NCBI GenBank assembly: GCA_050741255.1
Contig: JBOIEQ010000002.1
Span: 4,782-68,781, forward strand
Reading direction: 5' to 3'
Length of the DNA: 64,000 bases
From: Burkholderiales bacterium
GTDB lineage: Bacteria > Pseudomonadota > Gammaproteobacteria > Burkholderiales > SG8-41
The notes below the pieces were generated by a model. The model did not search any database. It was not told the DNA's origin and worked only from the letters and a program-made list of their open reading frames with translations. This document shows positions 6,720-16,777 of this stretch, piece by piece; position 1 is the first letter of the stretch, and every line of letters starts with the position of its first letter. Position numbers and translations under genes: made by a program.

Positions 6720-8117
6720 CTATCGCGCGTCACATGCCGAGCCCCGACACAGCAGCAACACCTCATCCCCGCCCAGCTTGAACCGCTCGACCACACGCCC
6801 CTGCGCTGCGTCACCCTCCTCGGCGATCGCATAAGCGTTATCCCAACCCTCCGGCGCCCACACGATCGCCGGCGCGGGCCAGCGGCGCGTATCGAGGTAG
6901 CCGATCACGCTCAGTCCTGCGGCGGTATCGTTTAGCGTATACAGCGTACGATCGCCCACCCGGGCCTGGATCGCGGCGGCGATGTCCGCGTAATTCTTGC
7001 CGCGGTAGTGATGCTGATACCAGGGAAAGAGCGCCACCGCGAACAGCAGCTTGAGCCCGACCATGACCGCCATGCAGCGGACGGCGAGTTTTACCGCGCG
7101 CGGCCCGGCCTGCCACACGACGAGCCCCAGGGCGAGGGCGAACAGCGGGAACACCGGCAGCAGGTAGCGCACGTTGCTCTGCGGCGAGGCCCAGTACGGC
7201 AGGCAGTTGATCAGCGCGATGGCCAGCGCGAGCACGACCGTCGCGCGCCGGACCCCCAGCGTCCCGCGATAGCGCCACAGGCACCACGCCGCCAGCGCAG
7301 TGGCCGGCAACAGTCGTCCCGCAAGCTTCAGCGGGAAAATCGCGTAATTCGTCCATGACACGTCGCTGGCGCCGGCGTCGAAGCGCGAGGCCGTGTAGTT
7401 CAGCATGCCGGTGAGCCGCGACAGGTCGCCGCGCACCGCCAGCAGCCACAGCACGGGCGCGGCCGCCATCGCGAGATGCAGCACCAGCGAGGGCGCCGAG
7501 AGCAGGAAGCGCCGCCGCCGGGCATCCACCGCGAGCGCGATAAAGGCGACGCCGTAGAACACGTAGGCCGTGATCGCCTTGGTGAGATAGGCGGCCGTCA
7601 TAGCCAGCACGGCGAGCGCGAGCCAGCCGGCGCGCTGACGTTCGCACGCGACCCACAGGCAGGCGATGCCCGCGAAGATGAAGAAGGCGAACACGGGATC
7701 GACATAGGCCAGCCAGCCACGGTAGAACAGCACGTCGGCGAGAGTCAGGTATGTGAGTGCGACGAACAACGCGGTTGCGCGGTCCCGCGTGAGCGCGCCG
7801 GCCAGCCAGCCCGCGAGCGCGGCGCTGCCGAGCGTCGCCGCGATGGTGACCGCGCGCGCGGCGATCAGCACCTGCGGCCACCCGATGACCGAGGCCACGG
7901 CCGCGACCAGCCAATTCGAGAAGGTCTCGTGCTGCAGCGGCAGGCCGTACAGCCGGCGATCGAACCACTGCCCGTTCTGCGCCATCTCCAGCGCGGAGAT
8001 GGTGGTCACCGCCTCCTCGCCGACGGCGTAGTAGAACAGCGCGGGGATGAAGCTCGCCGCCGCCAGCGCGAGAAGCACGCGCAGCGAACGCTCCGACACC
8101 GTGACTGCGGCGTTCAT
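6720..8117 (-). CDS. GT-C fold glycosyltransferase, ArnT / PMT (GT39/GT83)-like, polyprenyl-phosphate-sugar dependent
   Basis: 465-aa polytopic protein with an acidic first-loop motif (YYAVGEEAVTTISALEMAQNG) resembling the DE motif of ArnT/PMT enzymes. ATGA overlap with the upstream gene. Confidence 0.7.
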   Translation of the reverse strand: MNAAVTVSERSLRVLLALAAASFIPALFYYAVGEEAVTTISALEMAQNGQWFDRRLYGLPLQHETFSNWLVAAVASVIGWPQVLIAARAVTIAATLGSAALAGWLAGALTRDRATALFVALTYLTLADVLFYRGWLAYVDPVFAFFIFAGIACLWVACERQRAGWLALAVLAMTAAYLTKAITAYVFYGVAFIALAVDARRRRFLLSAPSLVLHLAMAAAPVLWLLAVRGDLSRLTGMLNYTASRFDAGASDVSWTNYAIFPLKLAGRLLPATALAAWCLWRYRGTLGVRRATVVLALAIALINCLPYWASPQSNVRYLLPVFPLFALALGLVVWQAGPRAVKLAVRCMAVMVGLKLLFAVALFPWYQHHYRGKNYADIAAAIQARVGDRTLYTLNDTAAGLSVIGYLDTRRWPAPAIVWAPEGWDNAYAIAEEGDAAQGRVVERFKLGGDEVLLLCRGSACDAR

Positions 8118-15016: not shown

Positions 15017-16777
15017 TCAACTCGTCCGGGACTGGTCGGCAAACTGGATGCGATGGAGTTTCGCATAAATGCCGTCGCGCGCCAGCAGTTCGCGGTGCGT
15101 CCCGGTCTCCGCGAGGCGACCCCGCTCCAGCACCACGATGCGGTTCGCGCGCTCGATGGTGGACAGCCGGTGCGCGATGACCAGCGTGGTGCGCCCCCGC
15201 ATCAGCACTTCCAGCGCGGCCTGCACATGGCGCTCGGACTCGGAGTCGAGCGCGGAGGTCGCCTCGTCGAGAATCAGGATGGGTGCGTTCTTCAGCAGGG
15301 CGCGGGCGATGGCCAGCCGCTGGCGCTGGCCGCCGGACAGCTTGACGCCGTTCTCGCCGATCAGGGTGTCGAGGCCCTGCGGCAGCTCGCGCACGAACTC
15401 GGTGACGTGCGCGGCGACCGCGGCGGCCTCGATGTCCGCGCGCGGCGCGGCGCGGAGCGCGCCATAGGCAATGTTCGCCGCCAGGGTGTCGTTGAACAGC
15501 ACCACGTCCTGCGACACCAGCGCGATGTTGGCGCGCAGCGAGGCCAGCGTGAGCGTTTCGATGTCGTCGCCGTCAACCAGGATACGGCCCTCGCTGACCC
15601 CGTAGAAGCGCGGCACCAGGTTGGCGAAGGTCGTCTTGCCGGCGCCCGACGAGCCCACCAGTGCCACGGTTTCGCCAGGCGCCACCGTGAGCGTGACCTC
15701 CGTCAGTGCTGGCGGCCGGTCCGGCGAATAGCGAAAACTCACGTTCTCGAAGCGGATCTCCCCGCGCGCGCGGCCCAGGGCAAAGGTACCGCCGTCGGTC
15801 TCGGGCGGCTCGTCGATCAGCGCGAACAGGCTTTCGGCTGCCGCCAGCCCCTTCTGCAGCGGCTCGTTGACGCTGGTCAGGCGCTTCAGCGGCGCGGTCA
15901 GCATCAGCATCGCGCCGACGAAGGAGACGAAACCACCGACGGTCAGCTCATCCTGCCCGGACTGGGAAATCGCGATGGCGACGATCACCGCCATCGCGCT
16001 CGACGCGATCAACTGCGTGATCGGCACGTTGGCGGCGGCGGCGATCGCCTGTTTCATCGAGTAGTGGCGCACGCGGCCCGCCTCGTCCGCGAAACGCTTC
16101 GCCTCGTAGGCCTGGCCGCCGAACAGCTTGACCACCTTGTGACCCTCGATCGCCTCTTCGATGACCTGGGTCATGTCGCCCATCGCCTTCTGCACGTCGC
16201 GCGAGGAGCGGCGCAGGCGGTTGGACAGCAGGCGCACCACCAGCACGATCAGCGGCGTCATCACCAGCGACAGCAGCGACAGCTTCCAGTTGAGCCAGAA
16301 CATCCACGCGAGCAGCCCGATGGCCGCCAGCGTGTCCTTGAAGACCACCGTCAGCACCGCGGTGGCGGCACCCGTGACCTGCGTGACGTCGAACGTGATC
16401 TTGGAAATGAGGTTGCCGGTAGGCTGGTCACCGTAGTAACGCGCGGGCAGTTGCAGCAGTTTGCCGAACATTTCCTCGCGCAGGTCCGTCACCAGCCGGT
16501 TGCCGACCCAGGCGATCGCATGCGAGCCCACATAAGTGCCGAGCCCACGCACCGCGGCGATGGCGAGGATCAGCCACGGCATCCAGCGCATCAGCGCTGG
16601 GTCCTTGTCCACGAAGGTGCCGTCGAGCAGCGGCTTCATCAGGGCGGGCAGCGCCGGCTCGGTCAGCGCGACGAGCACCATGCCGGCGATGGCGAGCGCG
16701 AAAATGCGCCAGTGCGGCGTCACGTAACGCAGCAGGCGGAAGTAGAGTTGGGTGCTGGTCAGTTCTGGCGCTGCCAT
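15017..16777 (-). CDS. msbA: Lipid A export ABC transporter permease/ATPase MsbA
   Basis: 586 aa with a six-TM domain followed by an NBD (Walker A GSSGAGKTT, signature [14 protein letters not shown], Walker B ILILDEATSALD). The N-terminus YFRLLRYVTPHW is MsbA-like. Confidence 0.85.
   Translation of the reverse strand: MAAPELTSTQLYFRLLRYVTPHWRIFALAIAGMVLVALTEPALPALMKPLLDGTFVDKDPALMRWMPWLILAIAAVRGLGTYVGSHAIAWVGNRLVTDLREEMFGKLLQLPARYYGDQPTGNLISKITFDVTQVTGAATAVLTVVFKDTLAAIGLLAWMFWLNWKLSLLSLVMTPLIVLVVRLLSNRLRRSSRDVQKAMGDMTQVIEEAIEGHKVVKLFGGQAYEAKRFADEAGRVRHYSMKQAIAAAANVPITQLIASSAMAVIVAIAISQSGQDELTVGGFVSFVGAMLMLTAPLKRLTSVNEPLQKGLAAAESLFALIDEPPETDGGTFALGRARGEIRFENVSFRYSPDRPPALTEVTLTVAPGETVALVGSSGAGKTTFANLVPRFYGVSEGRILVDGDDIETLTLASLRANIALVSQDVVLFNDTLAANIAYGALRAAPRADIEAAAVAAHVTEFVRELPQGLDTLIGENGVKLSGGQRQRLAIARALLKNAPILILDEATSALDSESERHVQAALEVLMRGRTTLVIAHRLSTIERANRIVVLERGRLAETGTHRELLARDGIYAKLHRIQFADQSRTS

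Follow-up and report, generated by a model that had tools for sequence, protein, structure and literature searches.

We identified in a Burkholderiales genome a nine-gene, minus-strand candidate operon that on balance we read as a three-component, undecaprenyl phosphate (Und-P)-dependent system for periplasmic glycosylation of lipopolysaccharide (LPS), of the Arn, Gtr and Wxc kind. The sugar predicted from its genes is a methylated 4-amino-4,6-dideoxygalactose, and the unit also encodes a putative O-acylation pair. The operon lies in a 64,000-nt stretch of contig JBOIEQ010000002.1 (assembly GCA_050741255.1, positions 4,782 to 68,781 of the forward strand), here called the window. Its nine open reading frames (ORFs) span positions 16777 to 6720, and each runs in frame from a start codon to a stop codon. 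From upstream to downstream they are as follows:

15017..16777, minus strand: G1, MsbA, a lipid A-core flippase and ABC exporter with permease and ATPase fused
14066..15013, minus strand: G2, a GT2 polyprenyl-phosphate glycosyltransferase of the GtrB/ArnC type (PF00535)
13293..14069, minus strand: G3 (MTa), a soluble class I S-adenosylmethionine (SAM) methyltransferase
12846..13208, minus strand: G4, a 120-aa, ArnE/ArnF-like (EamA/SMR-type) protein with about four transmembrane (TM) segments, candidate Und-P-sugar flippase
11980..12849, minus strand: G5 (MTb), a soluble SAM methyltransferase whose TTG start overlaps the G4 stop
10841..11983, minus strand: G6, a WecE orthologue, predicted dTDP-4-keto-6-deoxy-D-glucose 4-aminotransferase
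9346..10821, minus strand: G7, an MBOAT membrane acyltransferase of the DltB/AlgI/PatA type (PF03062)
8114..9346, minus strand: G8, a predicted membrane-anchored periplasmic SGNH/DltD-like protein
6720..8117, minus strand: G9, a GT-C protein of an uncharacterized glycosyltransferase family with an ArnT-like shape

The junctions from G1 to G9 measure +3, -4, +84, -4, -4, +19, -1 and -4 nt. An earlier sequence-only reading of this DNA had described nine head-to-tail genes with almost no spacers, and all coordinates and all eight junctions are as it described them. The G+C content at third codon positions (GC3) is 0.85-0.90 in all nine genes, on a par with the flanking genes, so that none appears foreign. 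Hidden Markov model searches agree with the roles predicted earlier for MsbA, the GT2 enzyme, the two methyltransferases, WecE and the MBOAT protein; for the flippase, the match is below the cut-off.

G1 and G6 score above curated equivalog cut-offs. By profile match G1 is a bona fide, full-length MsbA (TIGR02203, 792.7 bits versus a cut-off of 602, residues 12-581) with ABC_membrane and ABC_tran domains. G6 scores above both WecE equivalog cut-offs (NF008687, 603.9 bits versus 375; TIGR02379, 577.6 versus 434.9) and is closer to the Escherichia coli WecE structure 4PIW (E 4e-149) than to ArnB (9e-54); against the ArnB model it reaches 220.8 bits, below the cut-off of 631. Because G6 is a clear WecE orthologue, the donor sugar is most likely dTDP-4-amino-4,6-dideoxy-D-galactose. 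ORF scans of the operon, its flanks and the window showed that RmlA and RmlB are not encoded in the window. The same ORFs include no ArnA-type formyltransferase/decarboxylase and no deformylase, and the earlier observation that ArnA, ArnD and a deacetylase are missing holds among them.

The proteins that would load, flip and transfer the sugar resemble known enzymes while falling outside their curated families. The closest solved relatives of G2 are GtrB sll0501 (5EKP, E 2e-63) and then ArnC (E 1e-46). It is of the GtrB type, with two C-terminal TM helices (residues 232-250 and 264-282), and scores 175.3 bits against the ArnC equivalog NF007986, below the cut-off of 529; the PgfS equivalog match is also below cut-off. 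G4 has about four TM segments by hydropathy and matches ArnF (NF002816, E 5e-13, 49.5 bits, below the cut-off of 99) and EamA (E 6e-5, below cut-off) only, not the GtrA family (PF04138). No NCBIfam model matches the G9 sequence at E<=0.01, and its PMT_2 match (21.6 bits) is below the cut-off of 26.1. The AlphaFold2 model of G9 (pLDDT 89.2, pTM 0.90) has a GT-C fold, and the best Foldseek matches are the ArnT structures 5F15/5EZM (E 6e-10, TM 0.72, 17% identity). A profile of the G9 family found no chain in the PDB at E<=1, and an exact look-up of the G9 protein in public assemblies returned no record. Among 1.84 billion representatives, 197 clusters fall in the family at E<=1e-30, or about 200 clusters at 50% identity, and its invariant residues are G33-E34-E35 after TM1, D128, R133, D140 and K180. 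By sequence G9 is in no curated family and lies outside ArnT/GT83; its model is ArnT-shaped. The unit is not a member of the Arn family, as judged by the ArnT, ArnC and ArnB sequence matches and by its partner genes. It is also not a Gtr system, having no GtrA and a different predicted sugar, nor a Dlt system, having neither DltA nor DltC in the operon or its flanks.

The putative acylation pair is encoded between WecE and the GT-C gene. G7 matches PF03062 (120.8 bits) and the DltB structures 6BUG and 8JEM at E 2e-32, scores 191 bits against the DltB equivalog, below the cut-off of 375, and has the conserved histidine motif WRRWHMTLS at residue 288. The G8 protein of the window has no Pfam or NCBIfam match. 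Its AlphaFold2 model (pLDDT 87.7) has DltD as the top fold match, a weak one (6O93, E 0.016, probability 0.85), followed by other weak matches to TesA, GDSL esterases and PatB (fold matches E 0.016-0.35). Members of the G8 family match Lipase_GDSL_2 (17/27) and DUF1574 (16/27) weakly; a G8 profile run against the PDB gave three chance-level matches only, at E >= 0.4. The family invariants are G83-S85-T86, as GxS(T), and D361/H363/H364, as D-x-H-H, and an N-terminal TM segment covers residues 7-25. The label "DltD-like" given earlier to the MBOAT partner is thus borne out to a moderate degree by the weak fold match and the invariant Ser and Asp/His, and a DltD-like partner of the MBOAT protein is the best available reading of G8. 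Neither a DltA adenylation enzyme nor a DltC carrier protein was found in the operon or its flanks. Among related loci, L076 (124-5772) has two tandem MBOAT-SGNH pairs beside the GT-C gene and L063 has extra MBOAT copies, which suggests a diversified acylation step.

To place the operon among relatives we used a G9-family profile scan with one genome per species, which yielded 80 loci, and mapped synteny by tblastn. Nearly all of the loci are from betaproteobacterial metagenome-assembled genomes (MAGs; Gallionellaceae, Nitrosomonadales and Burkholderiales bins), with a few bins whose taxon labels are evidently wrong; the sole cultured isolate is Ferriphaselus sp. R-1. Eight markers were scored: msbA, GT2, the ArnF-like gene, MTb, WecE, MBOAT, gene 8 and GT-C. 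The gene-neighborhood search that the sequence-only reading had proposed found all eight in 21/80 loci, every one a betaproteobacterial MAG of another species with 40-80% protein identity. They are collinear on one strand in 18 of the 48 loci that have >=9.3 kb upstream of the GT-C gene, and a separate look-up added two further such loci. The nine-gene arrangement is more than a chance association. An upstream msbA on the same strand was found in 25/48 loci with enough flank. Directly upstream of the GT-C gene, 38/60 loci with sufficient flank have the SGNH-like gene that follows MBOAT. This does not depend on the donor module, and the SGNH-like gene keeps its place even where that module is exchanged or lies on the other side.

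At least three donor modules serve the G9 family of GT-C enzymes, each with a GT2 enzyme and a flippase:

Donor module 1: the WecE module
Donor module 2: DegT aminotransferase, GT2, a bifunctional WxcM (hexapeptide acetyltransferase plus FdtA) and GtrA, found in Ferriphaselus sp. R-1 (L022)
Donor module 3: epimerase, GT2, methyltransferase and GtrA

GtrA genes are present in the sister loci L022 and L070. In a neighbor-joining tree the GT-C sequences of GtrA modules form one clade, apart from the WecE-type Gallionellaceae clade. That GT-C clades follow donor type fits donor-specific co-evolution, with taxonomy as a confounder.

Two of the nine proteins are methyltransferases. MTa matches Methyltransf_25/31/11 and MTb matches Methyltransf_23/11/12 and has an N-terminal CxxC...CxxC zinc ribbon. 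As neither has TM segments, both are predicted to be cytoplasmic. Against the sugar N,N-dimethyltransferases TylM1, DesVI and CalS10, MTb gives weak matches confined to the Rossmann core (E 1e-6 to 4e-5). The match of MTa to CalS10 is also weak (E 4e-5), and generic small-molecule methyltransferases match it better. The MTb gene adjoins wecE in most loci, and the MTb of L087, an unrelated locus, is 53% identical.

In most WecE-type loci the slot between the GT2 and flippase genes is filled not by MTa but by a ~225-aa, two-domain GNAT protein. MTa fills it in the window and in L026, L049, L090 and L091, of which L090 and L091 share the zapA, receptor and msbA flanks of the window. MTa and GNAT are mutually exclusive at this position. 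The GNAT protein matches the WecD NCBIfam model weakly over its full length (E 1e-4, 22 bits versus a cut-off of 219); against the PDB, the GNAT-family profile found only generic matches to GNAT C-terminal parts (E 3e-4) and did not match a solved WecD structure. The exchange is clean in a blastn comparison with the closest relative, L001, where DNA homology is 86% on both sides and none extends across 13219-14113 of the window versus 2692-3377 of L001. On the minus strand of the window, the segment 13219..14113 holds the 3' extreme of G2, MTa and the spacer, and L001 has a GNAT gene instead. G2 residues 1-105 are 97-100% identical to L001 and residues 106-315 only 53-87% (30-residue windows), and because identity drops after residue 105, the tailoring enzyme was apparently exchanged together with part of the Und-P transferase. 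Recent acquisition of MTa as foreign DNA was considered and rejected, as its GC3 of 0.86 is that of its neighbors. The idea that the C-terminal half of the GT2 enzyme tracks MTa-type loci found weak support: its best match, L026, is MTa-type, and the GNAT-type loci L029 and L061 are nearly as close.

The MTa family is tightly conserved. Orthologues 60-74% identical occur across phyla, beside WecE orthologues and/or GtrB-type GT2 genes:

L081, Desulfovibrio sp. X2: MTa overlaps a GtrB-type GT2 gene; WecE orthologue adjacent; MTb-like gene present
L083, Bacteroidota MAG: MTa after a GtrB-type GT2 gene; WecE orthologue adjacent
L085, Moraxellaceae MAG: MTa with an adjacent WecE orthologue
L087: MTa overlaps a GT2 gene; small EamA protein, MTb and WecE (60% identity) adjacent; RmlA/RmlB-like genes nearby
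L088: MTa about 3 kb from a WecE orthologue, in a flagellin-glycosylation-like island
L089: MTa overlaps a GT2 gene

The unrelated genome of L087 keeps MTa, WecE and MTb together at 53-64% identity, with a GT2 enzyme and a small flippase. In none of these six loci does an acyltransferase gene stand beside MTa. Because MTa is mutually exclusive with GNAT and linked to WecE, it plausibly acts on the 4-amino sugar, on nitrogen. Large uncharacterized membrane proteins (a DUF6044 protein of 553 aa, and others of 429 aa and 714 aa) flank the GT2-MTa-WecE genes of L081, L083 and L087; they may be further, unrecognized lipid-carrier-dependent transferases. We do not claim those that follow MTa-WecE in Desulfovibrio (DUF6044) and Bacteroidota as G9-family members, as a comparison with the G9-family profile found no significant similarity.

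We can now outline how the unit may work. RmlA and RmlB, encoded outside the window, would supply dTDP-4-keto-6-deoxyglucose, and WecE (G6), given its strong homology, is expected to aminate C4. Cytoplasmic methylation by MTa and MTb would follow, with MTa acting probably on the 4-amino group, since it replaces the GNAT N-acyltransferase of most relatives, and MTb at a second position. G2, from its homology, would load the sugar onto Und-P, G4 would flip the lipid-linked sugar across the inner membrane, and G9 would pass it to an envelope glycan, the likeliest target being the lipid A-core of LPS after flipping by MsbA. An O-linked acyl group, probably acetyl, may then be attached by G7 and G8, either to the new sugar or to the periplasmic target that received it. 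The sequence-only reading had proposed a GT2 enzyme that loads a dTDP-derived 4-amino-4,6-dideoxyhexose on Und-P, then a small flippase, then a GT-C transferase, and the gene roles predicted here agree with that order. It had also raised a cationic N-methyl sugar. This would apply only to the minority of MTa-type loci; most relatives have GNAT in the MTa position, so their usual product is probably a neutral N-acyl sugar. A fuller version is that MTa-type loci place an N-methylated 4-amino-4,6-dideoxygalactose, cationic as a secondary or tertiary amine, on Und-P, that G9 transfers it to lipid A or the inner core, that exchange of the cassette along with the C-terminal part of the GT2 enzyme toggles close relatives between neutral and cationic products, and that the MBOAT/SGNH pair adds an O-acyl group. 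We consider this combination of steps unlikely as a whole.

The acceptor is where the alternatives differ most. We weakly favor the lipid A-core region over an O-antigen side branch because G9 is closest to ArnT, the place of the locus among LPS core genes is fixed and conserved, and msbA is joined to it in one large lineage. A side-branch system for O-antigen or another surface polysaccharide, of the Gtr/Wxc type, is a serious possibility that we rate well short of even. Here the GT-C enzyme would decorate a polymer linked to undecaprenyl pyrophosphate before ligation, and the MBOAT/SGNH pair would O-acetylate that polymer, as such pairs typically do. Sister loci of the G9 family carry the gene set of Xanthomonas campestris wxcK-L-M-N, in which wxcK and wxcN mutants lose the N-acetylfucosamine (FucNAc) side branches of the O-antigen (PMC4878081), and genes for a WaaL-like ligase and WbpM-like proteins are conserved neighbors. 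ArnE-like 4-TM flippases and GT-C enzymes also serve three-component O-antigen decoration (PMC11127046). Such decorations, however, are usually strain-variable and often phage-borne, whereas the position and gene order of this locus are fixed across betaproteobacterial orders. The best structural match of G9, moreover, is a lipid A transferase, well ahead of other GT-C enzymes, and the junction with msbA is tight in one large lineage.

Much less probable, in our judgment, is a co-located mosaic without a shared target, made up of a housekeeping msbA, a donor/GT-C module and an MBOAT/SGNH pair that acylates peptidoglycan (as PatA/PatB do) or an exopolysaccharide. The 84-nt and 19-nt gaps could house internal promoters; a consensus scan for promoters and terminators inside the operon gave nothing usable, and its counts did not exceed those of shuffled sequence. 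Several otherwise complete loci lack the MBOAT/SGNH pair (L009, L027, L031 and L077), and in Gallionellaceae msbA is unlinked and the donor genes lie in a changed arrangement around the GT-C gene. Against a mosaic, start/stop overlaps (-1 and -4 nt) connect the MBOAT, SGNH and GT-C genes, the SGNH-like gene keeps its place directly upstream of the GT-C gene through donor-module exchange or relocation, and peptidoglycan or exopolysaccharide synthase genes were not found nearby. The linkage to msbA, through which the sequence-only reading had tied the decoration to LPS export, holds in one lineage and not in the Gallionellaceae. Because the linkage is confined in this way, msbA is not intrinsic to the system.

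The missing pairs and the Gallionellaceae arrangement weigh against an LPS glycosylation unit as well, and several other points do the same. The fold matches of G8 are below significance (E > 0.01). It is MTb rather than MTa that matches sugar N,N-dimethyltransferases better, if still weakly, in a comparison of sequences that cannot separate N- from O-methylation, and no aminotransferase was found within 7 kb of the GT2-MTa pair in L089. The GT-C, SGNH-like and MTa families are all uncharacterized, and a consensus scan of the spacer upstream of msbA returned no sigma-70-like promoter. Even so, we retain Und-P-dependent LPS glycosylation as the preferred reading of the nine genes.

The spacer (16778..16934, minus strand) covers the 157 nt between a receptor gene and msbA and holds GC-rich hairpins, one of them followed by UUUU. 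Its fold energy is -79.1 kcal/mol (z = -2.06), the UUUU hairpin being only ~35 nt before the msbA start, and the unit is probably bounded upstream by this spacer. The gene beyond it (16935-18959, minus strand) encodes a TonB-dependent receptor and is preceded by a cobalamin riboswitch (19006-19286, minus strand; RF00174, 92 bits), so it is probably a B12-regulated, BtuB-like importer in a transcription unit apart from msbA. Given this separate regulation and the hairpin spacer before msbA, the label "msbA-led" is reasonable. Further upstream, a 6S RNA gene (20123-20299, plus strand; RF00013, 57 bits) is located just downstream of zapA (19721-20035, plus strand). The zapA-receptor-msbA arrangement is kept in L090 and L091, and L091 has a heptosyltransferase gene nearby.

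On the downstream side, a type II toxin-antitoxin-like pair is convergent on G9, consisting of a HigB-like toxin gene (5766-6047, plus strand) that overlaps an HTH_3 antitoxin-like gene (6044-6370, plus strand). The antitoxin-like part (6049-6370) also occurs in the close relative L001, at 92% DNA identity, and the L001 contig ends there. Directly after the G9 stop is an AT-rich segment of about 350 bp (6371-6729; 37-46% GC versus 67% for the genome) that is absent from the 86%-identical L001 and carries a plus-strand, 62-aa ORF with two hydrophobic segments; no repeats around it clearly point to a mobile element. Beyond the HigB/HigA-like pair is an LPS-type set with a methyltransferase, a GT2 enzyme, a Wzy_C/WaaL-like protein and a WbpM-like dehydratase. 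The genes for the WaaL-like Wzy_C protein, the GT2 enzyme and the WbpM-like dehydratase are convergent downstream both in the window and in most relatives' loci, and this LPS context counts in favor of the glycosylation reading.

Elsewhere in the window we identified a fatty acid cis/trans isomerase gene (24914-27295, minus strand) and at least six genes for TctC/Bug-family periplasmic receptors, including 23872-24900, 29093-30076, 42407-44408, 45916-46881 and 52286-53599. Burkholderiales typically have many such receptors, which agrees with where the window is placed taxonomically.

Surface charge, resistance to antimicrobial peptides, phage receptors and serotype are all set by periplasmic, lipid-carrier LPS decorations such as Gtr glucosylation and the addition of 4-amino-4-deoxy-L-arabinose (Ara4N), galactosamine, glucosamine or galacturonic acid. 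The locus would add to these a new donor sugar (methylated or acylated 4-amino-4,6-dideoxygalactose on Und-P), a new GT-C family and a built-in O-acylation pair. Its gene set is conserved in Betaproteobacteria of environmental importance, among them iron oxidizers, Nitrosomonadales and Burkholderiales. The GNAT-to-methyltransferase cassette swap offers a natural comparison for asking how the Und-P transferase and the donor chemistry are fitted to each other, and the recurrence of MTa with WecE and GT2 in several phyla suggests a methylated amino-sugar module that is widespread and has not been studied. If the product of MTa-type loci is indeed cationic, it would be a decoration not known before, one that alters LPS charge in the way Ara4N does.

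Among known systems, Arn likewise combines an aminotransferase and a GT2 enzyme for Und-P loading with a small 4-TM flippase and a GT-C enzyme, and the G9 model is closest to ArnT. The window differs in that its donor is predicted to derive from a dTDP-hexose (via WecE, not ArnB) and in lacking the ArnA dehydrogenase/formyltransferase and the ArnD deformylase. It also has two methyltransferases, one flippase gene rather than two, and the added MBOAT/SGNH pair. By sequence and by partner genes, it falls outside what defines ArnT, ArnC and ArnB.

The sequence-only reading did not recognize the combination as a described pathway. Our literature search found no description of this gene combination, and a near precedent exists in Xanthomonas wxcK-L-M-N, which builds an acetamido-dideoxyhexose branch on the O-antigen (PMC4878081). 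The Wxc region 3 (wxcK-L-M-N-O, Fuc3NAc branch) shares a dTDP-derived, N-substituted amino-6-deoxyhexose, a DegT aminotransferase, a GT2 enzyme, a small flippase and post-assembly decoration, and in sister loci of the G9 family, such as that of Ferriphaselus sp. R-1 (L022), the GT-C gene has exactly the Wxc gene set upstream. In contrast, the window has the 4-aminotransferase WecE, no FdtA isomerase, methyltransferases in place of the hexapeptide acetyltransferase, and a flippase of the ArnE/F rather than the GtrA type. Gtr systems (GtrA/GtrB/GtrX) likewise combine a GtrB-type Und-P-sugar synthase, a flippase and a GT-C enzyme, and the Citrobacter GT136 pentofuranose system also uses an ArnE-like flippase (PMC11127046). 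Unlike these, the window has no GtrA, its predicted sugar is neither glucose nor a pentofuranose, and the sugar-tailoring enzymes are in the same unit. The locus is also chromosomal and widely conserved, whereas Gtr loci are prophage-borne or serotype-specific.

The acylation pair resembles DltB/DltD, PatA/PatB and AlgI/AlgJ/AlgX in consisting of an MBOAT protein with a histidine motif followed by a predicted anchored periplasmic protein with a putative SGNH-type Ser and Asp/His. It differs in that DltA, DltC and AlgF are not encoded here, G8 is in no curated family, and the pair is embedded in a glycosylation operon beside a GT-C gene. The Fuc4NAc branch of enterobacterial common antigen (RmlA/RmlB, WecE, WecD, WecF) shares the WecE orthologue, and most relatives add a GNAT protein of WecD-like length. 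In that pathway a cytoplasmic Leloir transferase uses dTDP-Fuc4NAc directly, and neither a GT-C enzyme nor an Und-P carrier for the monosaccharide takes part. The window, however, has a methyltransferase in the GNAT position, and the GNAT protein of relatives matches WecD only weakly. Set against these systems, a 4-amino-4,6-dideoxyhexose on Und-P appears to be new relative to the literature searched, as do the uncharacterized GT-C family, the embedded MBOAT/SGNH pair and the natural acyl-to-methyl cassette polymorphism.

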